64,000 nt of DNA, from assembly GCA_963730185.1 (NCBI GenBank), contig CAVSQW010000014.1, positions 1 to 64,000 of the forward strand, given 5' to 3'. Position numbers and translations under genes: made by a program. This DNA comes from an uncultured Gemmatimonadales bacterium (lineage in GTDB: Bacteria; Gemmatimonadota; Gemmatimonadetes; Gemmatimonadales; GWC2-71-9). This document shows, one piece after another, positions 1 to 18,538 of this stretch. A model generated the notes under the pieces. The model saw only the letters and a program-made list of their open reading frames with translations, searched no databases and was not told where the DNA came from. The number at the start of each line of letters is the position of its first letter. The stretch's first letter is position 1.

Positions 1-37
1 AGGGTGGTCGGGGCGTCGGTGCGGGGCTGGAGCGGGA

Positions 38-1654
38 TCAGAGCGGGAGGACGTCGTTCGCGTCGGCGGTCGCGGTGGTGAGGGGCCCATCCCGAAGAGT
101 CGCTCCACGGTCGCGAGCATCGAGGTGTGGTCGAAGACGTGTGGTCGATGACCCCGCGCTGGGTGTACGGGAGATCACCAGCGCCGGACCCGGACGCCGA
201 GCTGGTCGAACTTGAAGCCGTGCTGGACGTAGAGTCGGCTGAGAGGTCGCCCGGGGGCACGGCCGGCCGCCGGCTCGACGTGGTCGTAGAAGCCGCCGTG
301 CTCGTCGAAGGTGACCATGAGCAGGCTGTCGCTCCCAGTGGGGCGAGTTCCGAATGGCCTCGTAGACGTCCTTGATCAGCCGCTCACCCCGGGTGACGTC
401 GTCGAGCGGATGCATCGAGTTGCCGCAGGTGTAGTCGCCGGGGCCGGTGACGTCGAACTTGTGGGAGCCGTATTGTGGCTCGATGAAGACAAACTTCTCG
501 CGAAGGTCGCCGCGTTCACCTCGTATTGAAGTCCTCGAAGTCGCGCAACCGGCCCTGGAGCCGTTCAGGTTCATGCCCTTCAGCGCGAAGCTCACCGGAA
601 ACTCGTCGCCTGGAAGATCCGCCAGGGGATGCAGTCGGTGTCGAGAGGTCGAAGATGTTGCCGTTCTCGAAGCGATAGCCGTCGACCGTGGTCGAGGAGA
701 CGATGTCGAGCTTGGCCGGGCTCCCGTCCAGGCCACCCGAGGTGCCGGCCAGGCAGGAAGAACGGTTGGGCCAGGTCGGCCCAGGGAGCGATGAGAACCA
801 CTGATCGCAGACGGCGAACTCGCGGCCAGCTGTTCAGCACCGGGAGCTGGCCCGGCGCGAAGCAGCTGCATGATCCGCTCGGGCGTCGCGGAGCCGTGTC
901 GAGGTAGTTGGCCATGAACCCGGAGTTGTCGACGGCCGGGTAGCCGCCCAGCACGGGTCGTAGACGGCGCCGCCGCCGCAGAGGGAGACCAGGGTGTTCT
1001 CGAATTCATGGCCGGGGTCTTCGTCCATGTCCTTGAGCTGGAAGTCGGCCGGCGCGCTGACCGGGACCGGCAGGCCAGTGACCGGGATTGACGTTCTGGT
1101 GGTGGCGGGATCGAAGCCGGCGTTGAACGTGGTCGGATCGCCGAGGGGTCGACGCCGGTGATTCCGCTGAAGCCGAGCATGTGGTCGAAGGAGCGGTTCT
1201 CGAGCATCAGCACGAAGACGTGCTGGATCGCGGCGCGGTCCCGCCGGCCTCGGCCGAGGAGCGCCGGAACAGCGCTTGGCCAGGCTCAGCATCAGGCATC
1301 GAGGGTGTCCCAGGCCACGCAGACGGCCTGGAGGACCCAGGAGAACACGACGCAGAGCGCCTTGACCACCCAGGCGAAGGCCTTGCAGACCCACTTGGCC
1401 ACCCAGTACTAGGCCTTGCAGACCCACTTGGCGACCCAGTAATAGGCCCTGGCAGAAGAACCCGGCGATGCAGTTCCAGGGCGTGTACCAGTGGCACTTC
1501 TCCCAGGAGGTGCACTGCTCGACCCTTCGTCGGCCCAGGCTCGAGCATTCGCTGGAGCCCTCGTCCGCCCAGGAAGTGCACTCGTAGTCGAGCTGGTCGT
1601 CCAGTTCTTACAGGTGATGACGAGCGTGTCGACCCACTTGGTGCAGGTGGACAT
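38..1654 (-). CDS. Phosphoesterase (acid phosphatase / phospholipase C-like) with Cys/Trp-rich N-terminal extension; multiply frameshifted as given
   Basis: Motifs HVFVLMLENRSFDHMLG, DPGHEF, FVFIEPQY, SMHP..DV..GE.LIK.VYEAIRNSP.W spread over several frames; N-terminus MSTCTKW at 1654. Confidence 0.7.
1379..1448. repeat. Two tandem 33-bp units encoding (Y)YWVAKWVCKA on the minus strand
   Basis: ggccttgcagacccacttggccacccagtacta followed by ggccttgcagacccacttggcgacccagtaata. Confidence 0.85.
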
Positions 1655-1664
1655 GGCATTCCCC

Positions 1665-2042
1665 CTAGGGTTCGTACTGGGCTCGGAGGTGGCGATAGAG
1701 GAGGGCGAGGCGGAGCCGGGCGACTCCGACGCCGATGAGCTTGCCGGTGAGGCCGGCCGCGAAGACGAGGGCGGCCCCGAGGAGGAGGCTCCGAGTCAGG
1801 CCGCCCTGGAGGACGACCCCGAAGTGGAGGCGGTCGACGACCAGGGCGAGGAGCGCGATGAGGGCGAAGGCGCCGCCCAGGCTGCAGCCGCACTCGCCGT
1901 GGAGCGCCTTGGCGCGTTGGACGTAGGGGAGGAAGCGCTCCCGCTCGCCGGGCCGGGAGCGCAGCAGCTGGTCGAGGACCGACTCGGTTTGGGACACACC
2001 AGCCCCCAAGTACGGGGAGTCGAGGGTGATCGGCTGGACCAC
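1665..2042 (-). CDS. Hypothetical two-TM membrane protein with ECGC motif
   Basis: 125-aa ORF with two hydrophobic stretches, ending 10 bp before the phosphoesterase start. Confidence 0.55.
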   Translation of the reverse strand: MVQPITLDSPYLGAGVSQTESVLDQLLRSRPGERERFLPYVQRAKALHGECGCSLGGAFALIALLALVVDRLHFGVVLQGGLTRSLLLGAALVFAAGLTGKLIGVGVARLRLALLYRHLRAQYEP

Positions 2043-2139
2043 TTCAAGTTATGGCGAATCCCGGTTCGCGTCGACGGGTGGCGCGCTTTGGGTCACCGAG
2101 GGGGCATGCTGTGCCACATAATTCCTTATCGCCGCGGGG

Positions 2140-2344
2140 GTGCTGCATAAGGAGGTGCTCGCCGTACTTATGCTGCGGGCCCCGCTCGGATGGGTGGCCA
2201 GCGCCGCCTCCGGCGGCCGGCCAGCGAAGGGCCGGAAGTGTCGGTTCGCAAACAGGTTGCGGAGGGTCTGGCCGGCGGTAACCCGCGTGCCCGACGAATT
2301 TGTTATCTTGCGAGCTGGAGTCCACGCAGGTCAAGTAGTTAGGC
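2140..2344 (+). other. Candidate attI-like site at the head of the cassette array
   Basis: GTTAGGC core at 2338-2344 pairs with the end of cassette 1 (GCCGCCTAAC, 3262-3271). No attC hairpin or RYYYAAC partner upstream; GCATAAG/CTTATGC inverted repeat at about 2144-2175. Confidence 0.5.
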
Positions 2345-2363
2345 GGCCAGGTACGGAGACGTG

Positions 2364-2885
2364 ATGAACGAGCCACTGACTGAAGACATCCAGCGAATGG
2401 TCGGCACCGCACGACGCTATTTGGTGGACGCCACGCTCCTTGAGCGCAGCCTCGACGTGTCGTCTGACGGGTCATATCTGCTCCGTCTGACAGCACTTGA
2501 GATACTTCTCAAGGCCCTCCTTCGTTTCCTGGGGAAGGTTCCAGGTCGGCATCATCGGTACCAAGAGCACTTCGCTGCGCTCCCACCGCAGGCTGCCACT
2601 CGGTTGATCCAGGCCGCGGCGCTGCGGATGGGACCTACGGCCGCATACTCCGATACGCCAGCGCTTTTGGCGACTTGGGCAGCCAACTTCGTCGCCCTTC
2701 GGTACCCTTATGAGGCATACAACGGCATGACGGCCGATGAAGTCCACAGGCTGGGCGCAGCTTGGCTTGCTGGTGGTGCCAAGCCTGAGGAAGCCACCTT
2801 TCGGTACCATCCCCTTGAGCTCGATGGCTTCCTGTGCGCGTTGCAGGACTTACTACACACGCCGGGCCACCCGATCGGCGCATGA
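2364..2885 (+). CDS. Cassette 1a: HEPN-like domain protein
   Basis: ALEILLKAL, HH.Y..HF..L and LRYPYE motifs resemble the HEPN ExxLK...H...RYP pattern. Confidence 0.6.
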   Translation: MNEPLTEDIQRMVGTARRYLVDATLLERSLDVSSDGSYLLRLTALEILLKALLRFLGKVPGRHHRYQEHFAALPPQAATRLIQAAALRMGPTAAYSDTPALLATWAANFVALRYPYEAYNGMTADEVHRLGAAWLAGGAKPEEATFRYHPLELDGFLCALQDLLHTPGHPIGA

Positions 2886-2925
2886 GCCTCGAACGCGCCG
2901 ATTGCTCTCACCACACCAGAACTCC

Positions 2926-3270
2926 ATGACCGCGGCGAGCCGGGTCGGACTGAGCCACCTTCTTGACCGCATTTGGACCCTGGTCTGTCTTTTCGGCCTC
3001 GGGCTACTTCCCCTGATCGGGGGTCTTTGCGTCCTTGGCTGGCAAACCGTCCACTACCTGCAAGCCGGCACCTGGGCGCCAGTCTCATTCCTCGACTTCC
3101 TCCACTGGGCGAACGTTCGCCGCTCTTGGATCGAGTCGCCGAGCTCGTGGCTCGGCATCTGGAAGTTCTTCAACTGGCTTCCTGCGTCACTTGCTGGAGT
3201 CGTCTACGGTGGCGCCATATCAGTGATATTCGCCGCCGGCATGAAGGACGACGAATCGAGTGCCGCCTAA
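2926..3270 (+). CDS. Cassette 1b: small Trp-rich membrane protein
   Basis: 114 aa, two hydrophobic helices; its TAA stop lies within the attC GCCTAAC box. Confidence 0.65.
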   Translation: MTAASRVGLSHLLDRIWTLVCLFGLGLLPLIGGLCVLGWQTVHYLQAGTWAPVSFLDFLHWANVRRSWIESPSSWLGIWKFFNWLPASLAGVVYGGAISVIFAAGMKDDESSAA

Positions 3271-3400
3271 CAAGATGCTGCAGCGGACCGGCGCCGAGGC
3301 TCCGCTTCCGAAGGTGCGGCCGCGGCTCCATGTTGCTGCGAGGCCGCCGCGGCCGCTTAGTTCCGACCGGCGCCGGCCGCTGAACATCTGAACGTTAGAC
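3265..3400 (+). repeat. attC site 1 (136 bp)
   Basis: GCCTAAC...GTTAGAC; arms GCTGCAGCGGACCGGCGCCG / CGGCGCCGGCCGCTGAAC with unpaired G and A. Confidence 0.92.
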
Positions 3401-3422
3401 GTCCAAAACCCTACCGTTCCGA

Positions 3423-4148
3423 ATGGCACCTGACCTCCGTGCGGTCGCCCTTGGCGACGAGGTTCTGACCTCGATTCGCCTCATCGAGCATGGCCTTGCA
3501 GCTGTGCAGCGCCTCGGCGCGGCAAACGACTTCTACTACGCGCCGCTCCTCTTGCTTTCCACCGGCCTCGAGCGGCTAATGAAGTGTGTCGTCTGCCTCC
3601 GCGCACTGGAAGCGGGAGGTCAGTACCCAACCCGAAGTAAACTGAAACGCTTCTCTCACGACCTTGCGGCCCTGCGCGATGCGGTCGTTCGCTCCTGTTT
3701 CGACGACGCCTACTGCTCCCGCCAAGCAGCGGCGGCCGACGCTGGCTACTTGACTGACGATGCTCGGGGCCGGCGCTTTCTGGAAATGTTGAGCACGTTC
3801 GCGCAAGCAGCTCGCTACCACAACTTGGACACGGTGTGTGGCGAGGCTCCCGATGTCGCCACTCCGGATCACGCGTGGGCCGCTCTTGAGATGGAGATCC
3901 TCAAGGACTATCCCGACTTGCTCGCATCTCTTCGGTCCGGTGGCCCTTTGGGCGAAGTCTACTCGCGGATCAACACCGAGCTCGTTGGGCATGTCGAGCG
4001 AACAGCCCGAGCACTATGCCGCCTGTTTACACTAGGGCCGCTCGGCGAAAGGGGCCAAATGCTAACTGGCTATATCGGACCCTTCCTGTTCTTGCAGGAC
4101 CGGGATCTGGGAACCAGGGCGTACCCGCTGCGGAGCCCGTCGCGCTGA
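3423..4148 (+). CDS. Cassette 2: hypothetical protein, HEPN-like
   Basis: LSTGLERLMK, FSHDL and ARYHNLD motifs; fills the cassette exactly. Confidence 0.6.
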   Translation: MAPDLRAVALGDEVLTSIRLIEHGLAAVQRLGAANDFYYAPLLLLSTGLERLMKCVVCLRALEAGGQYPTRSKLKRFSHDLAALRDAVVRSCFDDAYCSRQAAAADAGYLTDDARGRRFLEMLSTFAQAARYHNLDTVCGEAPDVATPDHAWAALEMEILKDYPDLLASLRSGGPLGEVYSRINTELVGHVERTARALCRLFTLGPLGERGQMLTGYIGPFLFLQDRDLGTRAYPLRSPSR

Positions 4149-4149
4149 C

Positions 4150-4287
4150 GTCTAACCAAATCTTGAACTGGACGGGCGCCCGGCCCTCCGATTTGCGGAG
4201 TCGCGGCCGCGCCGCCATGTTGGTTGGAGGATGGCGCGGCCGCTCAGTTCTGAGCGGCGCCCGCCAGTTAAGATTGGGCCGTTAGGT
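4150..4287 (+). repeat. attC site 2 (138 bp)
   Basis: GTCTAAC...GTTAGGT; ATCTT[G]AACTGG[A]CGGGCGCC pairs with GGCGCCCGCCAGTTAAGAT. Confidence 0.93.
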
Positions 4288-4329
4288 GGCGTCGGCCCCC
4301 GCCGACCGCCACCAGCCCGAGGTTGGCTT

Positions 4330-5553
4330 ATGACTCGCACGCTGGGTATCGGTTGGCTGGGTATCGGTTGGGCGCTGGCAGCGGCGATGCTACTCGGGTG
4401 CGGCGCCGACCGTGCACCGCTGGTCCATGTCCGCGACAGTGCTGGGACCCGGATCGTGGACAATTTCCGACCGTCAGGCCTGCGGTTTGAGCTGGACTCC
4501 GTGCCAGTGATCGACATTGGGCCCGAGGGAGGGCCAGGCGCCGAGTTCGTCAGCAGCCCGGTATCAGCCTTGCGGCTCCCAGATAAACGGATCATTGCCG
4601 CCGGCTGGGCAATGACCCAGGTCAAAGTGTTCGACTCAGCGGGGCGGTGGTTGCGCGATGTTGGCCGCGCCGGAGCTGGCCCGGGGGAGTTCGTCGGCCT
4701 GGGGTTCGTCTTCCCGCTCTCGGCAGACAGTGTCCTCACGTTCGAGCCAATGAGTCAGCGAGTCCAGCGCTGGACCCCCGCCATGAGCTTCGATCGGTTG
4801 GCCATTCTCACCTCCCCGCCTGATCGACCCACGGCTTGGGTACGGGGCACCTTTGACGACGGATCGCTCCTCCTTGCCACTAGCCTTCCGGACGAGGCGA
4901 CGAGTACCTCGCTCACCACCGGGATGGTCACCACGCTGAGTCGGGCGGCTTCGTCGTCGGCCCCCTGGGACTCGCTAACGGCATTTCCGAGCGCGCCGCG
5001 GCTTCGCCGCCCCAGCCAACCGACGACGACCTATGGTGGCCCCCTATTCGTGCCGGAGCCAAGCTACCATGCTCGTGGCTCGCGGCTCGCGTTTGCCTCC
5101 GGCGCTCGGTTCGAAATCGAGATCCGGACAAAGACCGGTGCTCTGCAGATGATCATTCGCCGTCCATCGACGGTGCAGGAGGTGTCTGACGCCGACTTCG
5201 ACCGCGCGGTAGCGGCGTGGCGGGCGCGATTCCCAGCCGCCCTCCAGGCCGAGCTTGAGCCCGCCCTTCTGAAGGCATCGCCCCGAACCCGCCCCCCGGT
5301 CGCGGAGGTTTGGCTCGCTGGCGACGGCCGCATCTGGGCCGTCTACGGTGATCCGACCATTGGCGAGGCGGCCCGAGCCAGCGTGTTCGATCACGAAGGC
5401 CTGTGGGAAGGCGACATTGAATTGCCAACCGGGCTCCAGATCAACCAGATAGATGCGGACGGCCTCCTCGGCACTTTCGAAGACGCCGACGGCTTCCGTC
5501 ATTTGCGTTTCTATCAGTTCGTCTCCACCAGGGACGCCGCAGGCCACGAATAG
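4330..5553 (+). CDS. Cassette 3: 6-bladed beta-propeller lipoprotein
   Basis: Lipobox-like LLGC, VRDSAG..IV.N, and FDSAG.WLR.VGR.G.GPGEF motif. Confidence 0.8.
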   Translation: MTRTLGIGWLGIGWALAAAMLLGCGADRAPLVHVRDSAGTRIVDNFRPSGLRFELDSVPVIDIGPEGGPGAEFVSSPVSALRLPDKRIIAAGWAMTQVKVFDSAGRWLRDVGRAGAGPGEFVGLGFVFPLSADSVLTFEPMSQRVQRWTPAMSFDRLAILTSPPDRPTAWVRGTFDDGSLLLATSLPDEATSTSLTTGMVTTLSRAASSSAPWDSLTAFPSAPRLRRPSQPTTTYGGPLFVPEPSYHARGSRLAFASGARFEIEIRTKTGALQMIIRRPSTVQEVSDADFDRAVAAWRARFPAALQAELEPALLKASPRTRPPVAEVWLAGDGRIWAVYGDPTIGEAARASVFDHEGLWEGDIELPTGLQINQIDADGLLGTFEDADGFRHLRFYQFVSTRDAAGHE

Positions 5554-5558
5554 CCGCC

Positions 5559-5700
5559 ACCTAACCCGTGCCTGAAGGCTGCCGAGGCCGCCGGGCATCC
5601 AGCCCGGAATGGCCCGGCAGCCGCAGCCGCTCTATACTGTTGGAGGCCGCGGCCGCGGCTGCCCCCAGCGGCCTCGCAGCTTATGCACTATCCGTTAGGC
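5559..5700 (+). repeat. attC site 3 (142 bp)
   Basis: ACCTAAC...GTTAGGC; arms GCTGCCGAGGCCGC / GCGGCCTCGCAGC. Confidence 0.9.
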
Positions 5701-5711
5701 GGCGTCCCGCG

Positions 5712-6680
5712 ATGAGAATACCTCCAGAGCTCCGACCTATGCTCTTCAGCGGCATCCCGTGGTATGAGCAGCTCGCTGAGCGGCCGTCAACGGAGCCGAC
5801 CGCGTGGTTTCTACTCCGTGATCCTGAGCCTGAGTGGTACGTACAGCTTCTGAATGCGACTATTGAGTTCCTTCAGCGGCACAAGCTGGTTCCGCTCTAC
5901 CGGGGCCGGCTACGAGCAATCCGGCCCGGCGACCTTACGCCCGGTCGCGCACAGAGTGAACGTCGCAACGTATCCCAGCCGATCTGGGATGTACTTAACG
6001 AGCCCCTCGTCGGCCTCGTGCTGGAACGCGCGGCCGGCTGGACGCTGCTCCAACCAGATCCGCCGGGGCGGTCGGGTCGCCTGGGCGACTGGCTCTTTCG
6101 GACCCCGTCGGGACGGGATGTCTTTGTTGAAGTGAAGAGCCCCGCTGAAATAGAGGCGACTACCGGGTCGGGTACGAGGTCTGACTACCGGCCTCGAATT
6201 CGCGCGGAAGTGCGCCGAGCGTACGGGCAGCTGCCCTCGGACGGCCGGGCGACGATGATCGTGATTGTCGGCAACGAGATGGTACGGGTGCCGTTCGGGC
6301 TGATGCTCGGCGACCTGTTTCAGGCCATGTTCGGTCAGTATGAAGTACGACTCCGGCCTTTCGAGCAGCCCTCGAGAATCACCTATCAGGGCCCGTCCTG
6401 GAGGGACATGTTGGTCCACGGGACCAAGCACCGCCAGCTGGGTTGTCTATGCGGCTTGTTGAAACGTGGGGTGGACCGGCCATTTCTCGGGTTGTATACC
6501 ATTCACAATCCGTTCGCGGACCCCACGGTTCGCTTGCCGGCCACCGACCTCGGCGGACTACATCAGTTTGCTGTTGATGACGAGCACGTTGGTCGCGAAG
6601 CGGGCGTCGATAATCACGAGGTGTGGGGCCGCCTTCAACTGCCAACCTGGCGACGCGATCCAGCCTCCGACGCCGCCTAA
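5712..6680 (+). CDS. Cassette 4: PD-(D/E)XK nuclease-like protein
   Basis: NE...GDWLF...VFVEVKS arrangement; stop codon inside the attC GCCTAAC. Confidence 0.6.
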   Translation: MRIPPELRPMLFSGIPWYEQLAERPSTEPTAWFLLRDPEPEWYVQLLNATIEFLQRHKLVPLYRGRLRAIRPGDLTPGRAQSERRNVSQPIWDVLNEPLVGLVLERAAGWTLLQPDPPGRSGRLGDWLFRTPSGRDVFVEVKSPAEIEATTGSGTRSDYRPRIRAEVRRAYGQLPSDGRATMIVIVGNEMVRVPFGLMLGDLFQAMFGQYEVRLRPFEQPSRITYQGPSWRDMLVHGTKHRQLGCLCGLLKRGVDRPFLGLYTIHNPFADPTVRLPATDLGGLHQFAVDDEHVGREAGVDNHEVWGRLQLPTWRRDPASDAA

Positions 6681-6812
6681 CACAATCTTGAACTGGACGG
6701 GCGCCAGGCGCTCCGCTTGCAGAGTCGCGGCCGCGCCCCGATGTTGGTTGGAGGATGGCGCGGCCGCTCAGTTCCGAGGCGGCGCCCGCCAGTTAAGATG
6801 TCGCCGTTAGGC
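6675..6812 (+). repeat. attC site 4 (138 bp)
   Basis: GCCTAAC...GTTAGGC; near-identical arms to sites 2 and 5. Confidence 0.93.
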
Positions 6813-6829
6813 GTCCCGTTGAGCTCCAG

Positions 6830-7695
6830 ATGCACAACGTCGTCCTTTACCTAGATACCAACCACGTATCGGAGCTCGCCCGATGCCCTACGGCCACGGA
6901 CCAGGCAGCCGTCCTGGGGCTCCTGCAGTCCGGTCGCGGGCGTCTTGCGATCTCGCTTGTCCATTTCATCGAACTGGCTGCCCCCGACTTCCGAAGCGTC
7001 GACGATGCGCGCGGTTTGCTGAGGGACGTACCGGTAGCTTGGACCGTTAGCACAGAGGAGCTATGGGACGGGGAGATCGCCGTGGCGTGCGCTCGGGCGC
7101 GCGGCCTCGAACGGCAGCCACCGCGCGTGTTCTGCGAGAATTCGCTTGATTGGTCCAGATGGCCCTCGCCAGCGTCGGGAAACGCCGCTGAGTTCCTCGA
7201 CTCGCTGATCGAGCAGCCGGCTCTGCGAGACGGACTCCTCCAGGTGGCCGACGAGTGGGCCCGGGCTTCAATGCTGAAGACCGAGGCCGCCTTGATCAAG
7301 GTACCGGGGCTTCCTCTGGAGTTGGCTGTGGACGCCCACTTGGCGGGATGGCGAGAGCGTAACGCCCACTATGCGGATGGGCTGAACGCCACCGAGATCG
7401 TCCGTGCGGTCGGCGGCTCAGTCGGATTCCCATCGCTGAACATGTTTCATCGAACCATAGAGCAGCGTTTGCGACAAGTCAGCCAGAAGAGTACACGGAA
7501 CGACATATTCGACGACTATCACGCCGCGTACGCCCCATATGCGGCGGTCACTGCGCTGGATCGCGGACTACGGCGCGGGTACGGAGTGCCGGACTTGCCG
7601 AGCTCCACCGGGTGACGGCACGGCTACGCGACGTACCCGACGTCCTGGCACGAGTTGAGAATGGCGAGCTATCGGTCGTACCGTCGACCTTCTAG
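6830..7695 (+). CDS. Cassette 5: PIN-like domain protein (probable frameshift near 7570)
   Basis: N-terminal VLYLDTN and C-terminal NDIFDDYH...ALDR acidic motifs. The ORF stops at 7615 as given, but an alternative frame continues to TAG 7695, next to the attC. Confidence 0.55.
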
Positions 7696-7704
7696 CCAGC
7701 GGAC

Positions 7705-7838
7705 GCCTAACAAAATCTTGAACTGGACGGGCGCCACCCACTCCGGTTTGCGAAGTCGCGGCCGCGCCCCAATCTTTCTAGCAGAATGGCGCGGCCGCTC
7801 AGGTCGGAGCGGCGCCCGCCAGTTAAGATTTGGCCGTT
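7705..7838 (+). repeat. attC site 5, interrupted at its GTT core by the IS110-family element
   Basis: GCCTAAC...GTT, then the IS; the remainder TAGACGGCC resumes at 9362. Confidence 0.92.
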
Positions 7839-7944
7839 GATATGACTGGGCTGCTGTCAAGGATCGTGATCTTCACCCACTCATGACCGTACCCTCCAGT
7901 GTCAGGCGACTGCGGTGAAAGAGACGACGGGCCCGGGGCTGCTT

Positions 7945-8095
7945 CGCCGATCATCCTGCTGATATACGCCGGTCAGCGGGTCCTCTCGCCGGAGCGGCAC
8001 GAAGTGGATGCGTCGGGAGCGACCTCGGTCTAGACACTCGGGTTCCGTTGGGCTGCACACGTACCGGATAACGACCAACGAGGGTTCCCCCCAGA
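7945..8095 (-). ncRNA. Candidate bridge/seek RNA of the IS1111-type element
   Basis: Minus-strand segments UUGGUCGUUA (8078-8069) and GUCUA (8035-8031) match the target halves; ACUUC (8005-8001) and AUAUCAG (7965-7959) match the donor junction halves. Flanked by CCUCG/CGAGG, CAUCC/GGAUG and GCCG/CGGC stems. RNA ends are unknown. Confidence 0.65.
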
Positions 8096-8123
8096 TCGTG
8101 CCCCGGCCACCCGCCGTCTCCTC

Positions 8124-9243
8124 TCAGGCCGCCGCCACCGCGCCGGGCTCGAGGTCCCGCATCACCGCCCAGAGAAAGCCGACCAGCTCGCGGGCGACGG
8201 CGACCGCCGCGATCTTGCGCTCCTTCCGATAGGCGAGGTGCTCAAACAGCCGGTGCAACCGATGCTGCGCTTTCCAGGCATGGGCGATCACGTCGGCCGG
8301 CTGCGACCGTTGGCGAGCCCGGAGCGCGGCCGCCACCTTGGGATAGTGCCGGTAGCTCCACGCCGCCTGCACCAACACGTGCCGGCAATGGCTGTTCCCC
8401 GCCTTGGTGATGGCGCCGAGGCGTTGGCGCGGGCCCGCTGGAGTGCTCGCGGGGCACCAGCCCCAGGAAGGCCATCAGCTGGCCGGCGGTGGCGAACCGG
8501 CGCCAGTCGCCGATCTCGGTCGCGAGCACCATCGCCGAATGGGTCTGCAGGCCGCGGAAGCAGCGGAGGCGGCCGACCGCCGGAGCGAGGTCCGGGCGGG
8601 TCGCCCGCTCGGCGATCTCGCGATCGAGCACCAGGCGGCGGTCCCGTTTGTATTGGAAGAGGGCCAGGTACTCGCGGAAGACCAGGAGGTCGTCCTCCTG
8701 GAGCGGCGACGTCGTCCGGGCCAGGGTCTCGAGCCAGGCGAGATGCCGCGGGCCCCAGTGGGGGCCGTCCCGATAGACGAGGCCCCGGCGGGTCAGGAAC
8801 TTGAGCAGATAGTGCTTCGACTGGAGGAGCTCCCGCTGGAGCGTCTCCCGGCACCGGACCAGGTCGCGGACCTGTTCCTCCGCCGCGCTGGGCACCCGGA
8901 CGGCGGTCAGCTCGCCGGCGCGGAAGAGCCGGACCAGCTGGGTCGCGTCGTACCGGTCGTGCTTGCGCTGGACCCCGGGCTTGGTGGGGATCAACGACGG
9001 GGCGATGACGGTGCAGGCGTGGCCCCAGCTCGTCAGGGCGCGGTAGAGCACGAACCCGGCCCCGCTGGCTTCGTAACAGACCTGGAGCGGCCCCTGGGTC
9101 GCCAGCCGGGCGAGATAGCGCTGGAGGGTCTTGGGCTCGTTGGGCAGGCGGTCCACCCGGGACGGGGTGGGGTCGCCGGCCGCCAGGACGGCCAGGGTGA
9201 TCGATGCCTGGTGCACATCCATCCCGACGTAGATATTGGACAT
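8124..9243 (-). CDS. IS110-family transposase/recombinase (one frameshift near 8435)
   Basis: VGMDVH, CYEAS and KHDRYDA (DEDD), LGLVPREHSSG (catalytic Ser region), ITKAGN, and C-terminal AVARELVGFLWA. Confidence 0.92.
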
Positions 9244-9419
9244 GGGCTGGTTCCTCCGACTGGCTGCGACAGTTGGTCCGGTCGCATGTGGCTCTGGCGA
9301 CTTCGGGGTCCCGAAGGAGCTAACCCACGGCGCTTCGGGGGGCCAGCCCAGTCATAACTTCTAGACGGCCCCGTATTTGGATCCTGGTGCGAATAGACCC
9401 CCTCCGCGGAGCGTCAGCA

Positions 9420-10115
9420 ATGGCTGGAACGTCGTGCACCAGATACCTTGGGCTGCTGCTGGCGGCCTTGCAGCTCGCACCCCTCCTTCAGCTGCGGGCT
9501 CAAGAGGCCCACACCATTGGTCAGGACCACCTTACCGAAGTGGCTTGCGTCGACGTGCCGTCGGGCGAGGCACGACCGGCGTTTGGTTGCTTCAACATCG
9601 GCGTTGTGACCGGACTTCACTTCGGCGACGCATCGGTGTTCTGGCATCTGCGCGCGTTTCCGAGCAGAAAGGCGGCAGAAGCCGCCAAGAGCGCGATGGG
9701 CATCGTGGTCGAGGAAGACGGGCAAGTGTGGCTCTCCGAATTCGGGCCTCGACGCGCCGGTCACGCGGGAGGGAAGGCGATTGCCGTCGTCGGACCGCTG
9801 CTCCTGCCGCCCGCAGCGAGCTACACGGCGGTTCTCTCATACGCTGTCATGCGGCCCGGCGACAACTCACGGGTGCATACACACTCGGGGCCCGAAGGCT
9901 GGTATGTGCTTACGGGAGAGCAATGTCTGGAGACACCGACCGGGGTTCAGCGGGCTCGGGCCGGCGCAACCATGACCGTGCCTTCGCATACCCCTATGGA
10001 ACTGAACGTCACAGGCAAGACGCTCCGCCGGGCGTTTGCCCTGGTCATTCATGATTCAACTCAACCGAGGGGCACCCCGTCCGATTGGAAACCCACCGGC
10101 GGCTGCAGTCATTGA
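9420..10115 (+). CDS. Cassette 6: secreted cupin-domain protein
   Basis: Signal peptide; HTHSGPEGWYVLTGE cupin motif. Confidence 0.8.
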   Translation: MAGTSCTRYLGLLLAALQLAPLLQLRAQEAHTIGQDHLTEVACVDVPSGEARPAFGCFNIGVVTGLHFGDASVFWHLRAFPSRKAAEAAKSAMGIVVEEDGQVWLSEFGPRRAGHAGGKAIAVVGPLLLPPAASYTAVLSYAVMRPGDNSRVHTHSGPEGWYVLTGEQCLETPTGVQRARAGATMTVPSHTPMELNVTGKTLRRAFALVIHDSTQPRGTPSDWKPTGGCSH

Positions 10116-10132
10116 CGATCGTGCGCTCGGCC

Positions 10133-10277
10133 GTCTAACCCGAGCGTGCGGTCTGACGAGGCCGCCGGGCATCCGGGCATTCCCGTGGCGTCGCCGGCCC
10201 GCCCGCTCCATGTCTGTTGAAGGCCGCGGCCGGGCCGGCACGTAGCGGCCTCGCAGCTGACACTCTAGTCGTTAGGC
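10133..10277 (+). repeat. attC site 6 (145 bp)
   Basis: GTCTAAC...GTTAGGC; related to site 3 (GAGGCCGCCGGGCATCC...GCGGCCTCGCAGC). Confidence 0.88.
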
Positions 10278-10389
10278 GGGCCAGTGCGCGGTCTGGCTTA
10301 TGGAGGGATTCGCTATGGCGCTCCCGGTTTGCGAAGGTACCACATGCACGCACGGTCACACACGGCAGCCATGTTCCCAGGGACCTGTC

Positions 10390-10881
10390 ATGACGTTCGT
10401 CTGGGTTCTTGGCCTCAGCATCCTGGCAACGCGGCTCAGCGCGCAGACGTCCGCCGACACGACCGCCATTCGCCAGATTGTGGAAGACGAGATCACGGCT
10501 TGGGATCAGGGAGACGCGACCGCCTACTCGCGTCACTTCGCGGCGAACGGCACGTTCACCAACATTCGAGGTGAGTTCTTCACGGGCTATGCGGGATTTC
10601 TGCGGCAGCACGAGATGATCTTCGAAAGCCTCTTCAAGCACACAAAGTTACAGCAGGATATCGTATCGCTCCGTTTCATCACTCCCGATGTCGCCGTAGT
10701 TGATGTGTTGACCGCGGTCACGGGTGTGGCGCGGCCACCGCCACGGATGACGCTCGATGGGCAAGGGCGACTGCGGACGCGCCTGCTGCAGGTCGTCGCG
10801 AGGCAGGCTGGGGAGTGGAAGATCGTCGCCTATCATAATGTGGACCTGAAGCCTGGGGTCCCGGTCCCGGCGCCACGATAA
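10390..10881 (+). CDS. Cassette 7: SgcJ/EcaC (NTF2-like, DUF4440) protein
   Basis: AW..GDA.AY...F..NGTFTNI.G, LRF.TPDVAVV, WKIVAYHN. Confidence 0.85.
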   Translation: MTFVWVLGLSILATRLSAQTSADTTAIRQIVEDEITAWDQGDATAYSRHFAANGTFTNIRGEFFTGYAGFLRQHEMIFESLFKHTKLQQDIVSLRFITPDVAVVDVLTAVTGVARPPPRMTLDGQGRLRTRLLQVVARQAGEWKIVAYHNVDLKPGVPVPAPR

Positions 10882-10920
10882 TGGCGACCCACGAGTGAGC
10901 GGGGCTGCGCTTGGTGGGCC

Positions 10921-11061
10921 GCCTAACAAGCGCATAAACCTGTCCAGCGCCCTCAGCCTCGGCCTCCTTGCGGCGGGCCCCTGGCGGTGCATACTCAGAG
11001 GAAGTCAGACAATTCGCTGCGGGCGAGGAGTCGCTGGCAGCTTAAGCGCAGGACGTTATAC
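10921..11061 (+). repeat. attC site 7 (141 bp)
   Basis: GCCTAAC...GTTATAC; GCGCATAAACCTGTCCAGCG / CGCTGGCAGCTTAAGCGC. Confidence 0.85.
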
Positions 11062-11139
11062 GGCCCAGCGGGTGTCCCACCTGCCCGCGGGGGCGGAGCT
11101 CCGGCCGGAGACTCCTTTGCGAGCATCAAGGCAGCGTCA

Positions 11140-11331
11140 ATGACATGGACCGCGGAGCAGCGTGCCGAGTTGGCGCGCGAGTATGACCGGATAGGATACG
11201 TAGCTGGCGACCGCTGGCCCGCGCCGCCGCCCGAACTCGGCCCGGAAGAGTTGCTCGCACTTTTGCGCTCCGTGGAGTCCGGTACGGGTCGAGCGGGTTG
11301 GGAGGCGGCGCTGGCCCGGCGAGCCCCGTAA
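11140..11331 (+). CDS. Cassette 8: 63-aa hypothetical protein
   Basis: MTWTAEQRAELAREYDRIG..., plausible amphipathic helices, correct cassette position. Confidence 0.5.
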   Translation: MTWTAEQRAELAREYDRIGYVAGDRWPAPPPELGPEELLALLRSVESGTGRAGWEAALARRAP

Positions 11332-11468
11332 GGCTTGAGCAGTGCACCTCCGCTCGATCCTGGCGGGTCTGTTCATAGGCCTGGTGGCAGGGTCGGGCAC
11401 CCAGGCCGCCGATCCTCAGCCTTCCTCGCCCGTCCTGGCGATCCTTCGGCGAGCCTATTGCCAGTGCC

Positions 11469-11607
11469 GTATAACCCAGTGTTGCAGGCGGACGGGCGCC
11501 CGACCATCCCGTTGCGAAGTCGCTGGCGCGCCCCAATGTTATCGGGGGACGGCGCGGCCGCTCAGCCCCGATGCGGCGCCCGACCGCTGAACACTAAGGC
11601 GTTCGCC
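11469..11607 (+). repeat. attC site 8 (139 bp)
   Basis: GTATAAC...GTTCGCC; AGTGTTGCAGGCGG / CCGCTGAACACT arms; interior related to sites 2, 4 and 5. Confidence 0.82.
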
Positions 11608-11691
11608 TGCGGAATACCATTCCTTGCGATCGTTCTTTGCGAACCATCGGGAATCGCCGCCAACGCCCGTTGAGTCAAGGAGGAGTCGATA

Positions 11692-12717
11692 GTGCACCGA
11701 CCTTTGCTCATGCTTATATGCGTCTTGGGGTTGTCGGGCTTGGCGGGTGTCGTCGGCGTGATGCACAAACCTCGGGCCGAGGCGGCCCAAGCGGCCAGGC
11801 CGACGACATCGGACCGGCAACACCCGGATGTCGGGACGGCCGGCGCGTGGCAGCCGCCTTCGGGATTGAAGCAAGTCCCGATCTGGCCGAACGGTGCGCC
11901 GGACATGGAAGGCGTCTCTCAACCGGCCGAGAGAGTCGAGGTCACGAAAGCCCCGGATCTCGTCGCGGGGCGCCCGTATACCGCGGTCTATGACGTAACG
12001 TCTCCGACCATGACGGTCTTTCCACCCGTGGGCAGGAATACCGGCGCCTCGATGGTGGTCTTCCCCGGCGGCGGATTCAGGCTTCTGGCTATGGACCTTG
12101 AAGGGACTGAAATATGTGACTGGATGACCGCCAAAGGCATCACGTGCGTCTTGCTCAAGTATCGCGTTCCCAAAACCAATCACTACTGGGACAAGGATTG
12201 CCATTGCCACATCACACCCAAGGTCCCCCGCGCACTTCAGGACGCGCAAAGAACGATCAGGCTCGTTCGCGCCAGGGCGAAAGAGTTGAACCTTGGTCCC
12301 AACATGATTGGGGTGATCGGCTTCTCGGCAGGCGGGTATCTGGTCGCGCAGACCAGCAACATATTCGAGCCGACCTACAAGCCGGTGGATGCGGCAGACA
12401 AACTAAGTAGCCGCCCTGACTTCGCCGTCGCGCTTTACCCGGGTCACCTGTGCCGCGATGGTGCCACCCTCGACCCCGGCATACACGTCACAACGCAGAC
12501 GCCGCCGACGTTCCTGTTGCAGGCGTGGGATGACCCCGTGGACGACATCTGCAACAGCACGGTGTACGCGCGCGCCCTTGATGATGCGGGCGTCCCGGCA
12601 GAGGTCCATCTCTTTACCAAGGGCGGGCACGCCTTCGGACTGAGGCGCACAGAACATCCGGTGGCGATGTGGCCTGCGCTTGTAGAGAACTGGCTCAAGG
12701 AGATCGGGATTCTTTAG
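11692..12717 (+). CDS. Cassette 9: secreted alpha/beta hydrolase (acetyl esterase-like)
   Basis: RBS AGGAG; PGGGF, GFSAGG nucleophile motif, DDPVD, GGHAFG. Confidence 0.88.
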   Translation: MHRPLLMLICVLGLSGLAGVVGVMHKPRAEAAQAARPTTSDRQHPDVGTAGAWQPPSGLKQVPIWPNGAPDMEGVSQPAERVEVTKAPDLVAGRPYTAVYDVTSPTMTVFPPVGRNTGASMVVFPGGGFRLLAMDLEGTEICDWMTAKGITCVLLKYRVPKTNHYWDKDCHCHITPKVPRALQDAQRTIRLVRARAKELNLGPNMIGVIGFSAGGYLVAQTSNIFEPTYKPVDAADKLSSRPDFAVALYPGHLCRDGATLDPGIHVTTQTPPTFLLQAWDDPVDDICNSTVYARALDDAGVPAEVHLFTKGGHAFGLRRTEHPVAMWPALVENWLKEIGIL

Positions 12718-12743
12718 TTGTAAGTCCTTACTAAGAGGGCGCA

Positions 12744-12768
12744 GACTAACAACGACATGCACCGGAGC
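12744..12768 (+). repeat. Truncated attC (left arm only)
   Basis: GACTAAC AACGACATGCACCGGAGC resembles an attC start. GCAGACTAAC is 8/10 complementary to the cassette start GTTCGCCTGC; no right arm found. Confidence 0.5.
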
Positions 12769-12821
12769 AATCTCGGGTCGGCTCGTGTCGTCTTTGACGA
12801 TGGAAGGAAGGGAGATGCCGA

Positions 12822-13145
12822 ATGGGTTCTTCTGAGCTGGCGTTCATTGTGAGCATCGTTCTCTTTCGAGTCGCGCCGCTCGTCCTAGTCCCCGTCGGCG
12901 CTTACTACCTGTTCGCGCGGAGCGAGATGGGACGTGCCCTCATCGACCGGTGGCGTCGCGATTCGTCGGAGCTGCCTCCATTGGTCGAGCAGGAGATCCT
13001 GCGTCTTCGCGAGGAACTCATGGAGGTCCACGAACGCCTCGACTTCGCCGAGCGCATGTTGGTGGAATTGCGCAACACTGGACAGCTTCCGCCGGTGGCG
13101 GCCTCGCGTCAGCCCACGCCGCCGGAGAGGACGAAGGCCCGGTAA
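12822..13145 (+). CDS. Hypothetical single-TM coiled-coil protein
   Basis: TM segment followed by LREELMEVHERLDFAERML. Confidence 0.7.
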   Translation: MGSSELAFIVSIVLFRVAPLVLVPVGAYYLFARSEMGRALIDRWRRDSSELPPLVEQEILRLREELMEVHERLDFAERMLVELRNTGQLPPVAASRQPTPPERTKAR

Positions 13146-13295
13146 AGGTTCGGCGTGACTCCGTCCACCGGTTGGCGTGCTGGCCTGCCACCGGCTCGAC
13201 CCCTCGGCTCCCTGGGTCGACCTGGCAGTCCCCGTCGTCGCGGGTTGATCCCTTGAGCGCCACACTGGACGGTGACTCCGACGGGTCAGGTCCGG

Positions 13296-13480
13296 GTGTA
13301 CGGATGGGACAAACTCGTATTACTCAACCACTTGCTGGAACAGGGCCTCTCCAAGACCGCGATCGCTGAGCAGGCGGCCGTGAGCCGGGCCCTGATCTAT
13401 CACCTGCTGCGGACCAGCCAGTTGGACCGGGATCTGACGGCCCCGCGGACCAGCCGGGCCCGGCCGCCCGGCGCGCCTGG
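13296..13480 (+). pseudogene. IS21-family IstA N-terminal fragment
   Basis: YGWDKLVLLNHLLEQGLSKTAIAEQAAVSRALIYHLLRTSQLDRDL, an HTH typical of IstA; rest of the gene absent. Confidence 0.6.
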
Positions 13481-13667
13481 CACCCAAGTGCGCCCGGCTG
13501 CGGACCGCCCTCCATCACAGCCCGGAGCATCGGGCCACGATCGCCGCGATTCGGTCGACCGCGCGCCGCATCCTGTTCCTCGAGGCCGAGGCCGAAAACC
13601 ACGCTTCGGCCATCGAGCTGGTCAAGGGGCCGACGCCGGGCTCGACCAGCAGCCGCGGGGCGACCGG

Positions 13668-13823
13668 CACGACGGCTGGTACCTTGCCCGAACCCGCGGA
13701 AGCCAGCAACAAGTCAAGCACCCGGTGAAGCCGGGCCTTGTCACGGTGGGCGGGCAACCGGGAGACGACGTGGCCCCTGGCACGTTGAATAGCATTCTCA
13801 AGCAGGCGGGGTTGAAAGAGTGA
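13668..13823 (+). pseudogene. hicA: HicA toxin remnant
   Basis: DGWYLARTRGSQQQVKHPVKPGLVTV...DVAPGTLNSILKQAGL; N-terminus missing and GSH is GSQ. Confidence 0.8.
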
Positions 13824-13990
13824 AGATCCTGATCGTTGTCGAGGCCACGAACACAGGTTTCTCCAGCCGCGAGGCGGTCGAGCAGGAGATGCGAGAAGCC
13901 GTCGAGTTTCATCTGGACGGTCTCCGGGACGCAGGGCGAGCTCCTCCCAAGGCGACCAGCTATGCGACAACCATCGAGGTTGCCGCCTAA
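13820..13990 (+). pseudogene. hicB: HicB antitoxin with apparent internal deletion
   Basis: MKILIVVEATNTGFS|SREAVEQEMREAVEFHLDGL...IEVAA; GTGA overlap with hicA; lacks the usual PDLPGC segment. Confidence 0.75.
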
Positions 13991-14071
13991 CAAACAAATG
14001 CAGCAGACGAGCGCGCCGATCTTGCGGCTTTACCGCAAGCGCGCTCGCAGCTGATTTGTAGTGCGCTAGGG
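13985..14071 (+). repeat. Terminal attC (87 bp) with degenerate core (GCTAGGG)
   Basis: GCCTAAC AAACAAATGCAGCAGACGAGCGCG ... CGCGCTCGCAGCTGATTTG TAGTGC GCTAGGG. Confidence 0.8.
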
Positions 14072-14212
14072 CGTCAGGCACGAAGCACATGCGAGGGGGA
14101 GAGTGTCGCACTCCCTGGGGCGAGTGACGCGGGCATTTCGCCAAGGCCTCGATCAGCTGGGCTCTGCTCGCCCCGTGAGCGCTTCGCGGACCTGGCCGCG
14201 ACCGACTGCCTG

Positions 14213-15151
14213 CTATTCGGTTCCGAGGAAGCGCTCGACGATCTCGGGCAGCATCGGCTCGACAGGGATCGTGTAGTGGGTGGTGTTCGGCACGATTGCG
14301 AGCTGGTGGGCGGGCCGCAGCGAGCCATCGATCCCGGCATCGCGCTGGCCGCCTCCCAACGCCTTCCAGAAGTCGACCATGTGTTCGGGCCGGATGGCGT
14401 CAGCGTCGGCAAAGACCAGCAGTGTTCGTGCCTGAAGCTTGGCGACGTCGGCGCTCCAGTCAAAGGGGCGTGTGGTCAGGTCACCGATCTTCCTGAAGAG
14501 GTTTGTCCAATCGACATCGGGATAGGCCTTCCCCAACGGCGATGCCTTGACGCCACCGCCGAACGTGGCAGCGTTGACCTCCAACTGTTTGAAGGCCGCC
14601 ACCCCCTCCGGATAGAAGCCGTCCTGCCTCATCGCCGCGGACACGAGCACGAGCCGGTCGACCACCTGCGGATGGCGGACAGCGGTCTGCAGCGCGACGC
14701 TGGAGCCCAGCGAGTAGCCCATGACGTCGGCCTTGCCGAGGCTCAGGTGGCCGATCAGAGCAGCAATGTCGTCACCCATCGTTTCACTGCGCAGTGGCCT
14801 GTCGGTGTCTGGCGTGCGCCCATGTGCCTGGAGATGGGGGGCGATCACCTGCCGGCCCTTGGCCAGTTCGGCCAGATTGCTCCCGAAGCTGTCTGGGTTG
14901 ATGCCACCGTGGAGAAGAATGAGCGGCTTGCCGGCGCCATGTACGCTGTAATAGATGTGCTGGCCGTTGACGTCGGCAAAGGTCGCATTCGACCCGGCGG
15001 GGGTCTCGTTGGCTTGAACGGGAGGGGTCGAAGGCGTTTTCTGTGAGCCGCTATGGAGCGAACGCATCCTCGCCGCGCTGCCCGCATCGCATCCAATCGC
15101 ACTCAGCACTGCGGTCGCGGTGGCAGTCGTCAGGAAATCGCGCCTCTGCAT
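14213..15151 (-). CDS. Tat-exported alpha/beta hydrolase
   Basis: QRRDFL twin-arginine motif; LLHGG, GYSLG. Confidence 0.85.
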   Translation of the reverse strand: MQRRDFLTTATATAVLSAIGCDAGSAARMRSLHSGSQKTPSTPPVQANETPAGSNATFADVNGQHIYYSVHGAGKPLILLHGGINPDSFGSNLAELAKGRQVIAPHLQAHGRTPDTDRPLRSETMGDDIAALIGHLSLGKADVMGYSLGSSVALQTAVRHPQVVDRLVLVSAAMRQDGFYPEGVAAFKQLEVNAATFGGGVKASPLGKAYPDVDWTNLFRKIGDLTTRPFDWSADVAKLQARTLLVFADADAIRPEHMVDFWKALGGGQRDAGIDGSLRPAHQLAIVPNTTHYTIPVEPMLPEIVERFLGTE

Positions 15152-15158
15152 ATCGTCC

Positions 15159-15689
15159 TCACGTCGCGCCGAGCTGGCGGCTGAGAAGCATGTCGTCGAG
15201 GCGGGCGTAGCTATACTCCATGCCGTCGGTCATGCCGGTGGAGACGGCGCCATCACGCCGTTCCTTCGACCCGTACGTCATATTGCAGACAAGGGTCGTG
15301 ACGCCGTTCTGCTCACTGAGTTCAAGTGACACGATGCAGGGATCGCCAGCGGGCATGGCGCCGCCGATATCGCCCGGGCCGCCGACATCGCCCGGGTCGA
15401 AGTATTCTTCGTGGACAAGCTTCGACGGGCCGTTGACTTCGGTGTACGTGCCGAAGAAGCCGAACTGCTTGCCGCCTTCGCGGCTTCTCCACTGCCACTT
15501 GTACTTGCCGCCGACCCGGACATCCATGTCGCACACCGGCATATCCCAGCCGTCATAGCCGGACTGCCATTTCTGCACGAGCTCGGGCTGGGTATGCGCA
15601 TCCCACACCAATTGGCGGGGCGCGTTGAACGTCCGGGTGACGCGAACTTCGCGATCACTCGGCAAGGTAACTTCTGCGGGCTTAGGCAT
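15159..15689 (-). CDS. SRPBCC/AHSA1 domain protein
   Basis: SDRE..VTRTFNAPRQLVW.A.T.PEL, D.RVGGKY. Confidence 0.88.
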   Translation of the reverse strand: MPKPAEVTLPSDREVRVTRTFNAPRQLVWDAHTQPELVQKWQSGYDGWDMPVCDMDVRVGGKYKWQWRSREGGKQFGFFGTYTEVNGPSKLVHEEYFDPGDVGGPGDIGGAMPAGDPCIVSLELSEQNGVTTLVCNMTYGSKERRDGAVSTGMTDGMEYSYARLDDMLLSRQLGAT

Positions 15690-15737
15690 TGTCTTCTCCT
15701 TGGTGCTTCATCGTGATCGCGCGCCGACATGTCCCCG

Positions 15738-16094: not shown

Positions 16095-16318
16095 AACCGC
16101 CTAGTTCCATAATGGCATGGTTATATACAACGTCAAGGCAGGCCAGTCAAGGCTTTGGGGTCATATTTCCAAGGCGTTCGGGGAAGCCGACCGCTATGCG
16201 ATGTTCGGTTGCTCGACACTCATGGAGAGGCGGCTGAGGCGCGACGAGAGCACGCGGACCGGAAGCTCGGGTGAAACCGTAAGCTCCCCGTCAAGTGAGA
16301 CAGTCCGAAACGAGACTC

Positions 16319-17409: not shown

Positions 17410-17493
17410 GGACTCCTCCTTCGCCAGAGAAGTCTAGCATCAGACTGTCTACCCGGTGGGGGAGCTTACGAAACGCCGTACGGGCAATGCCGA

Positions 17494-18519: not shown

Positions 18520-18538
18520 TCGGTTCTCTCGCAGGATA

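Follow-up and report, generated by a model that had tools for sequence, protein, structure and literature searches.

A cassette array with nine attC sites and no adjacent integrase gene in a soil Gemmatimonadota genome, likely served by integrases encoded elsewhere

The 64,000-nucleotide stretch of DNA examined herein (the window) forms the first part of contig C14 in a metagenome-assembled genome (MAG) of a soil Gemmatimonadota bacterium. With a probability that we place at roughly 85%, positions 2338-14071 constitute an integron cassette array that has nine attC sites and no adjacent integrase gene (intI), and that is likely worked in trans by the integrases encoded on contigs C13 and C6 of the same genome. 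The array is a genuine CALIN (a cluster of attC sites lacking an integrase), and a clear but ordinary example of this category. Several features are directly visible in the DNA, including the anatomy of the attC sites and their single orientation, the presence of the same attC family after two intI genes, cassettes shared between arrays with breaks at GTT, and a block resembling an attI site ahead of the first cassette. The MAG comprises 17 contigs totaling 5.27 Mb, with ~70% G+C and 82% completeness.

An imperfect palindrome resides between each cassette end (..YTAAC) and the next cassette start (GTTRR..). A script check of every word pair revealed that in eight of eight cassettes the first bases are the inverse complement of the last bases over 9-13 nt. 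For example, GTTAGGCGGC at position 2338 is the inverse complement of the end of cassette 1 at 3262. The portion of each word beyond GTTA/TAAC is matched inside a cassette and differs among cassettes, a pattern that chance does not produce. An earlier model-made interpretation of the window (the sequence-only reading) had proposed such pairs as the footprint of integrated cassettes. Seven simple pairs hold at the positions it gave, as exact reverse complements of 9-13 nt. The eighth pair, which spans an insertion sequence (IS), is real and 12 nt long, but it is split after GTT rather than as GT-T: GTT (7836-7838) precedes the IS, AGACGGCCC follows from position 9363, and the complement GGGCCGTCTAAC ends at 10139. 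The proposed extent of the array also stands, as the first crossover is at G2338 and the final, degenerate R' box ends at 14071. The array has one more cassette start, the ninth (GTTCGCC at 11601), in which the R' box is mutated and for which no matching end exists (3 nt of complementarity).

Nine attC sites lie on one strand between 3265 and 14071. The label "long attC" suits the eight sites of 134-145 nt and fails for the ninth, which has 87 nt.

3265-3400, plus strand: attC1
4150-4287, plus strand: attC2
5559-5700, plus strand: attC3
6675-6812, plus strand: attC4
7705-7838, plus strand: attC5, interrupted by the IS
10133-10277, plus strand: attC6
10921-11061, plus strand: attC7
11470-11607, plus strand: attC8
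13985-14071, plus strand: attC9, 87 nt, with a degenerate R' box (GCTAGGG)

The structural evidence for these sites derives from a covariance model, called R1, and from folds of the bottom strands computed with DNA parameters. R1 was built from seven of the window sites, leaving out the interrupted attC5 and the short attC9. A scan of positions 1-20000 with R1 returned the nine sites in a single orientation with E values of 1e-8 to 6e-28, and the next match had an E value of 0.087. The two sites outside the model scored 110 bits (attC5) and 49.9 bits (attC9, E 1e-8), and attC8 scored 128 bits. Five sites fit both the strict R'' (RYYYAAC) and R' (GTTRRRY) consensus, and compensatory changes are present in 15 of the 38 consensus pairs across the seven aligned sites. 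The sequence-only reading had named a failure of the bottom strands to fold as an argument against itself. Instead, six of the eight long sites fold with -42 to -49 kcal/mol and the short attC9 with -29.6 kcal/mol, and seven of the nine sites yield z-scores of -3.5 to -9.0 relative to shuffled sequences. The evidence thus says, to the extent that the model and folds can be trusted, that the repeats are attC sites. No significant attC was found between 11610 and 13982, where the best candidate (12741-12835) has an E value of 1.5. A scan of positions 1-20000 against Rfam 15 (E ≤ 1) gave three chance-level matches and no attC or IS guide-RNA family, and a search with a fixed inner-stem pattern gave one chance match, elsewhere.

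One-sided extrahelical bases are the source of attC strand polarity, as established by the work of the Mazel laboratory. When the outer stems of 18 attC folds from this genome were walked base by base, 12 displayed an R-box stem, an asymmetric loop and at least two single-base bulges, on the 3' arm only. In these 12, the terminal stem has 4-8 bp, ~3 nt of the loop reside on the 5' arm, and the bulges are ~6 bp apart. The other folds either have bulges on mixed sides (3/18) or adopt a different minimum free energy structure (3/18). The predicted attC hairpins therefore would carry their extrahelical bases mostly on one arm.

The integrase model TIGR02249 (cut-off 265 bits) has no match in C14:1-64000, in agreement with the sequence-only reading, nor on contig C16. 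On C14, its nearest match lies at 112964-113785 and belongs to a generic tyrosine recombinase (55-59 bits vs 265). The genome-wide search for intI suggested by that reading found two integrases, at C13:210982-211923 (415.6 bits) and C6:184326-185276 (360.1 bits). C13 IntI aligns with VchIntIA (2A3V) with an E value of 1e-77 over residues 8-309, and the alignment is ungapped across the segment aligned to ...KYPNAPYEFRWHYLFPS..., which we take to be the IntI-specific domain. This structure alignment covered C13 IntI, and C6 IntI was identified by TIGR02249 and Pfam.

Both integrase genes are followed directly, on their 3' side, by the same attC family as in the window, with cassettes oriented like the integrase. 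Among the 23 R1 matches in the genome, nine belong to the window array, three follow the C13 intI, nine follow the C6 intI, and two are solitary; an nhmmer search gave the same picture. The C13 array runs off its contig, which ends 3.3 kb past intI within a truncated fourth attC. The co-oriented arrangement is the norm in the wider clade. We collected 80 loci encoding IntI relatives (54-73% identical), and 71 of 72 R1 matches, distributed over 32 of the 80 loci, are downstream of and co-oriented with intI. The closest relatives (57-73%) are mostly from Gemmatimonadota, Gemmatimonadales or Gemmatimonadaceae MAGs, which supports the guess of a Gemmatimonadota host made from sequence alone. Across the order (41 genomes, one per species), intI scores above the cut-off in 26 genomes and reaches E ≤ 1e-30 in 33, several of these genes being fragments. 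The two solitary attC-family copies, C17:118186-118336 and C14:159870-160015 (E ~3e-9 and 8e-9), are located away from any intI, and the latter has the orientation opposite to the window array. Within the C13 array, positions 213184-214540 (locus L007, 8185-9541) hold two consecutive near-duplicate cassettes, each an Unstab_antitox/ParE toxin-antitoxin pair.

Two cassettes of the window have counterparts in the C6 integron. Cassette 7 is 98% identical to C6:186947-187591 plus 188891-189036, and cassette 8 is 97% identical to C6:195699-196249. These cassettes are adjacent in the window and ~8 kb apart in C6, among other neighbors. Side-by-side comparison revealed that identity starts or stops at CGTT in four of four junctions, with unrelated sequence beyond, which is the expected footprint of recombination at G/TT. 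To judge from these alignments, cassettes have indeed moved between the window array and the C6 integron at some time. The hairpins, the link to integrases and the cassettes that break at GTT together uphold the integron-cassette interpretation made in the sequence-only reading. In two soil metagenomes, cassette 7, the beginning of the terminal segment and the IS are present on contigs that turn unlike the window from 11058/11059, 11605 and 9366, which are crossover or insertion points. Such contigs lend weak independent support to cassette movement, as far as sequence breakpoints can indicate it.

Two other observations concern these comparisons. In C6, the counterpart of cassette 7 is interrupted just before its attC R'' box by a 1.3-kb insertion (C6:187591-188891), which contains a minus-strand open reading frame (ORF) with matches to HTH_32, LZ_Tnp_IS481 and, weakly, rve; this is a further IS inside an array, and its position differs from the IS1111 target described below. 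Two skip joints, from 3384/3391 to 7834/7835, have sides of ~30 nt with 90% likeness. A deletion in the window was considered and rejected for them; most likely they stem from a different organism in which an attC1-like site harbors the IS.

The head of the array resembles the region surrounding the C13 integrase gene, as follows.

2105-2136, plus strand: pre-intI block, 29/32 identical to C13:210955-210986, immediately upstream of the C13 intI start codon
2137-2296, plus strand: intI-replacing stretch of 160 nt, standing where the ~950-nt intI lies in C13
2297-2340, plus strand: attI-like site with crossover G2338/TT, 35/42 (83%) identical to C13:211940-211980

The matched C13 segment (211940-211980) is the stretch between the intI stop codon and the first cassette GTT, which is located 46 nt past the stop. 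Because the first C13 cassette obeys the inverse-complement rule (GTTAGACCGCTCC vs GGAGCGGTCTAAC), the 46 nt after the intI stop hold the attI. A search of 100 fetched loci with up to three mismatches found both core motifs (attI and a 16-mer of the pre-intI block) only in C13, in the window and at the end of C16. Given that homologues of attI and of the pre-intI block flank 160 nt without similarity to intI, the integrase gene was probably lost from this position.

The last 2.35 kb of contig C16 overlap window positions 1-2337, with 99% identity over the final 1 kb. The C16 end carries the same head structure, and thus the head junction is not an artefact of one contig. This contig stops 10 nt past the attI crossover. 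The crossover region reads AAGTA-CTA-GTTAGGC in C16 (which then ends), AAGTA-GTTAGGC in the window and AAGTA-ATA-GTTAGAC in C13. The 3-nt difference at attI and the break of C16 could reflect variation of the first cassette in the population, or read error. Among the 21 other genomes of the genus, a homologue of window 1300-2340 was found in none, save for one 70-nt match, and no empty site can be defined.

We propose that the array would derive from a complete integron of the C13 type, with intI, attI and cassettes on one strand. Deletion or replacement of intI would have spared the attI and, upstream, the pre-intI block of 32 nt. The C13 integrase may still recognize the window attI, and the array cassettes may be transcribed from upstream of this site.

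It is conceivable that no integrase was lost and that the array is instead a piece of a complete integron, such as the C13 array, split off by rearrangement or by assembly. The C13 contig ends inside an attC 3.3 kb past intI, the window is the start of its own contig, and the window attCs are 82-90% identical to those of C13. Furthermore, rearrangement is listed as one origin of CALINs in passages of Cury et al. 2016 (PMC4889954). However, a split-off piece would start with an attC, whereas the window array starts with its own attI homologue and pre-intI block. In addition, the sequence to the left consists not of cassettes but of ordinary genes that overlap C16. We therefore regard a split-off piece as improbable.

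A history in which no integron platform was ever present, with successive insertions in trans at a secondary, non-attI site, strikes us as very improbable. That CALINs can arise when IntI inserts cassettes off target is documented in excerpts of PMC8618304, PMC4889954 and bioRxiv 10.1101/2022.09.11.507474. However, the first GTT is preceded by 42 nt with 83% identity to the C13 attI, and the pre-intI block lies 160 nt upstream in the same order and orientation, with these motifs occurring nowhere else among the 100 loci.

All 22 genomes of the genus (one genome per species) carry the attC family, and they share little cassette content. The sequence-only reading had accepted that gene order conserved among relatives, with dispersed repeats, would speak for repetitive extragenic palindromic (REP) elements; hardly any cassette ORF recurs across the 22 genomes, and the search for a collinear array in them found none. 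Besides the attCs, the array pieces matched in the genus are cassette 3, the IS, a fragment encoding a helix-turn-helix (HTH)/transposase and the hicA region. The cassette 3 copy (G014:C113) has 74% identity with an attC directly after it, and the hicA-region match (G017:C139) lies on the contig that bears the intI of genome G017. Homologues of the right-flank genes, which are AHSA1-like and ArsR-like (85% identity), are held in common with genome G021, where seven attCs with different content end 1.2 kb from them. Genome G017 has the same right-flank genes and no attC in the 12.5 kb upstream. This combination of shared neighborhood and unshared content indicates that the repeats do not behave like REP elements. 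That they are REP elements or similar palindromes of the miniature inverted-repeat transposable element (MITE) type, unrelated to integron recombination, is barely tenable: although they are GC-rich imperfect palindromes between genes and are numerous throughout the genus, all have the orientation of the flanking ORFs, they cluster after intI here and at 31 further loci with IntI relatives, identity between paralogous cassettes ends at GTT, the inverse-complement rule holds cassette by cassette, and only 2 of the 23 matches in the genome are solitary.

Several points weigh against our reading of the locus as an integron array that lost its intI and is worked in trans. The 160-nt stretch at 2137-2296 holds no trace of the C13 intI (score 12 vs 13.1 ± 1.8 for 200 shuffles), a comparison with the C6 intI gave the same null outcome, and the case for loss of the gene depends on two flanking blocks totaling 74 nt. 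Regarding the attC sites, the folds of attC7 (-25.8 kcal/mol, z -0.7) and attC8 (-36.6 kcal/mol, z -1.9) are weak, the R' boxes of attC8 (GTTCGCC) and attC9 (GCTAGGG) depart from GTTRRRY, and R1 derives from the same sites that it scores. The degenerate R' boxes imply that the distal part of the array may be frozen (fused and immobile). No sigma-70-like promoter was found in positions 1900-2500 by a scan whose consensus does not cover the promoter rules of this phylum, and array expression is therefore unsupported. A terminator scan of the same positions found none. The assignment of C6, C13 and C14 to one cell rests on binning only, in a MAG of 17 contigs with 82% completeness. The copies of cassettes 7 and 8 are 97-98% identical rather than identical, so either some time has passed since the exchange or the assembly contains errors. 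Finally, the read support comes from two soil runs in which 5-6% of the sampled words occur. These runs are stored as contigs, from which neither circular junctions nor excision frequencies can be read, and a recombination event was not observed.

A more speculative possibility is that the orphan array is a working satellite platform rather than a decaying remnant, with one integrase serving two attI sites. Loss of intI would have joined the upstream region of the integrase gene to an intact attI. The C13 integrase could then deliver cassettes to this location, where they would be transcribed without an integrase gene in between. We offer this idea tentatively and consider it more doubtful than not.

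Integrons are best known from clinical Proteobacteria. To our knowledge, integron biology has never been bench-tested in Gemmatimonadota. Soil phyla including Gemmatimonadota are listed as integron carriers in passages of PMC8618304, and no detailed description of the integrons of this phylum was found among the literature matches listed for integrons together with the phylum.

Sedentary chromosomal integrons of Vibrio have homogeneous long attC sites (VCRs), toxin-antitoxin cassettes and an intI opposite to the cassettes. The system described here likewise has long homogeneous attC sites, toxin-antitoxin cassettes (ParE with an antitoxin twice in C13, and a HicA remnant in the window) and a chromosomal neighborhood in common with a relative. 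In contrast, the window array is far smaller (nine attCs), its attC family is unrelated in sequence, and the orientation of intI differs. A sedentary chromosomal integron as defined by Cury 2016 is present in all genomes of a species or has more than 19 attCs, and the nine attCs of the window array place it outside this definition.

The proposed origins of CALINs and their co-occurrence with complete integrons are already known, according to passages of PMC4889954. The window array resembles the CALINs defined with IntegronFinder (Cury 2016) in that it co-occurs with complete integrons and carries cassettes mostly of unknown function, none for resistance. It differs in two respects. First, most published CALINs have no recognizable trace of a platform (an intI pseudogene lies within 10 kb in only 15 of 279, as given in an excerpt of PMC4889954), whereas the window array retains an attI homologue and a pre-intI block. 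Second, its exchange of cassettes with a complete integron is directly visible.

A closer parallel in gene orientation is provided by the atypical chromosomal integrons of Treponema, in which intI is oriented like the cassettes and an intI-less remnant exists in T. phagedenis, as outlined in parts of PMC3607928. Co-orientation of intI and cassettes recurs here (in C13, in C6 and in 71 of 72 matches among relatives), as does an array that outlasts the (here probable) loss of its integrase. The phylum is different, and the genome analyzed here keeps two integrases elsewhere, such that the orphan array need not be static.

The integrons of this phylum, CALINs, an array surviving integrase loss and IS1111 elements that target attC are already in the literature. 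The locus adds unusually clean sequence-level evidence for the route to CALINs via intI loss, with the attI left behind, as well as for cassette exchange within a single genome, where a CALIN and a complete integron share cassettes that break at the crossover base. It also indicates that attC-targeting IS1111 elements exist outside Proteobacteria. As a rule, these three points are only deduced. In addition, the analysis shows that integron integrases are common in Gemmatimonadales (26/41 genomes) and oriented like the cassettes. The accepted view of integron function is unchanged by the locus.

The IS within attC5 has the following position and layout.

7839-9362 (1524 bp), minus strand: IS1111-type element within the R' box of attC5 (GTT^AGAC); its transposase gene runs from 9243 to 8242

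Its transposase is of the DEDD type, with Pfam domains DEDD_Tnp_IS110 (PF01548) and Transposase_20 (PF02371), and matches NCBIfam NF033542 ("IS110 family RNA-guided transposase") with 163 bits vs a cut-off of 140. Perfect subterminal inverted repeats of 12 bp (ATGACTGGGCTG) mark the termini and are extended by 7 bp on the transposase-proximal side and by 3 bp on the far side, and a long non-coding region is present downstream of the transposase gene. The hallmarks of IS1111 elements given in excerpts of PMC11187229 are a DEDD transposase, 11-13-bp subterminal inverted repeats, 7-bp and 3-bp extensions and a non-coding region 3' of the transposase gene. A second, internally deleted copy (C6:198167-199106) occupies the same attC position, GTT^AGAC, in the same orientation, and in a soil contig the IS end is followed by AGAC and then by unlike sequence. 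Judged by termini, layout and target site, the element appears to behave like members of the IS1111-attC group (ISPst6, ISKpn4 and ISPa25), with which it shares the type of transposase, the termini and insertion at attC ends in a fixed orientation, again according to excerpts of PMC11187229. It differs in residing in Gemmatimonadota, whereas the named elements are from Pseudomonas and Klebsiella. Within the non-coding region 3' of the transposase gene, GGTCTAGAC and CCGTTGG at window 8027-8051 echo the two sides of the target GCCGTT/AGAC. These segments are possible candidates for the guides of a seekRNA or bridge RNA, with matches of only 4-6 nt.

The cassettes and their contents are listed below.

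2339-3394, plus strand: cassette 1; ORFs 2361-2885 (174 aa) and 2926-3270 (114 aa), no match in Pfam, NCBIfam or PADLOC; attC1
3395-4281, plus strand: cassette 2; ORF 3423-4148 (241 aa), no family match in Pfam, NCBIfam or PADLOC; attC2
4282-5694, plus strand: cassette 3; ORF 4330-5553, beta-propeller-like, Pfam DUF5128 at 24.1 bits (cut-off 22.9); attC3
5695-6806, plus strand: cassette 4; ORF 5712-6680 with its stop codon inside R'', no match in Pfam, NCBIfam or PADLOC; attC4
6807-7838, plus strand: cassette 5; ORF 6830-7615 (261 aa); attC5, which starts at 7705 and is interrupted by the IS behind GTT (7836-7838)
9363-10271, with its first two bases at 7837-7838, plus strand: cassette 6; ORF 9387-10115, cupin-like, Pfam Cupin_2 at 24.8 bits, under the cut-off of 27.2; attC6
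10272-11055, plus strand: cassette 7; ORF 10300-10881, DUF4440/SnoaL-like (SgcJ/EcaC family); attC7
11056-11601, plus strand: cassette 8; small ORFs 11140-11331 and 11342-11590; attC8 with a mutated R' box
11602-14071, plus strand: terminal segment; ORFs 11692-12717 (esterase), 12822-13145, 13272-13823 (HicA C-terminus) and 13820-13990 (56 aa), Pfam matches Abhydrolase_3 and HicA_toxin; attC9

All the cassette-filling ORFs are on the plus strand, and several of their stop codons lie in or adjoin R''. Most cassettes are of unknown function, and none carries a resistance gene. Only 5 of the 14 cassette ORFs have a Pfam match at E ≤ 0.01, namely a DUF5128 beta-propeller, a cupin (below cut-off), DUF4440/SnoaL, an alpha/beta-hydrolase esterase and HicA. 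A PADLOC scan of the 14 cassette proteins for defence genes gave no matches, and a HEPN-like defence role for the products of cassettes 1 and 2 is accordingly unsupported. Likewise, the 56-aa ORF at 13820-13990 was considered as HicB-like and has no family match in Pfam, NCBIfam or PADLOC.

The last ~2.4 kb (11602-14071) include several ORFs with no significant attC between them. The 183-aa ORF at 13272-13823 has a HicA domain in its last 50 residues only, and its N-terminus reads like a transposase HTH. The DNA at ~13238-13476 recurs with ~80% identity in several genomes of the genus. The sequence here suggests that an IS fragment may have inserted into hicA.

To the left of the array, window positions 1 to ~1650 are a frameshift-ridden copy of the C16 end (C16:29234-31582; 94.8% identity over 2.3 kb with 43 gap openings), and comparisons in this region are subject to contig-end noise. 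The C16 copy has an unbroken 617-aa frame where the window copy gives a weak phosphoesterase match. This region looks like an unpolished overlap of contig ends and not a pseudogene. To the right, 2.2 kb beyond the array, an IS3-family element (16295-17437) carries two minus-strand ORFs that match HTH_Tnp_1 and rve/rve_3. Farther along, a minus-strand gene at 18539-19861 encodes a 440-aa FG-GAP repeat protein, which accounts for the direct repeats with a period of ~150 nt.

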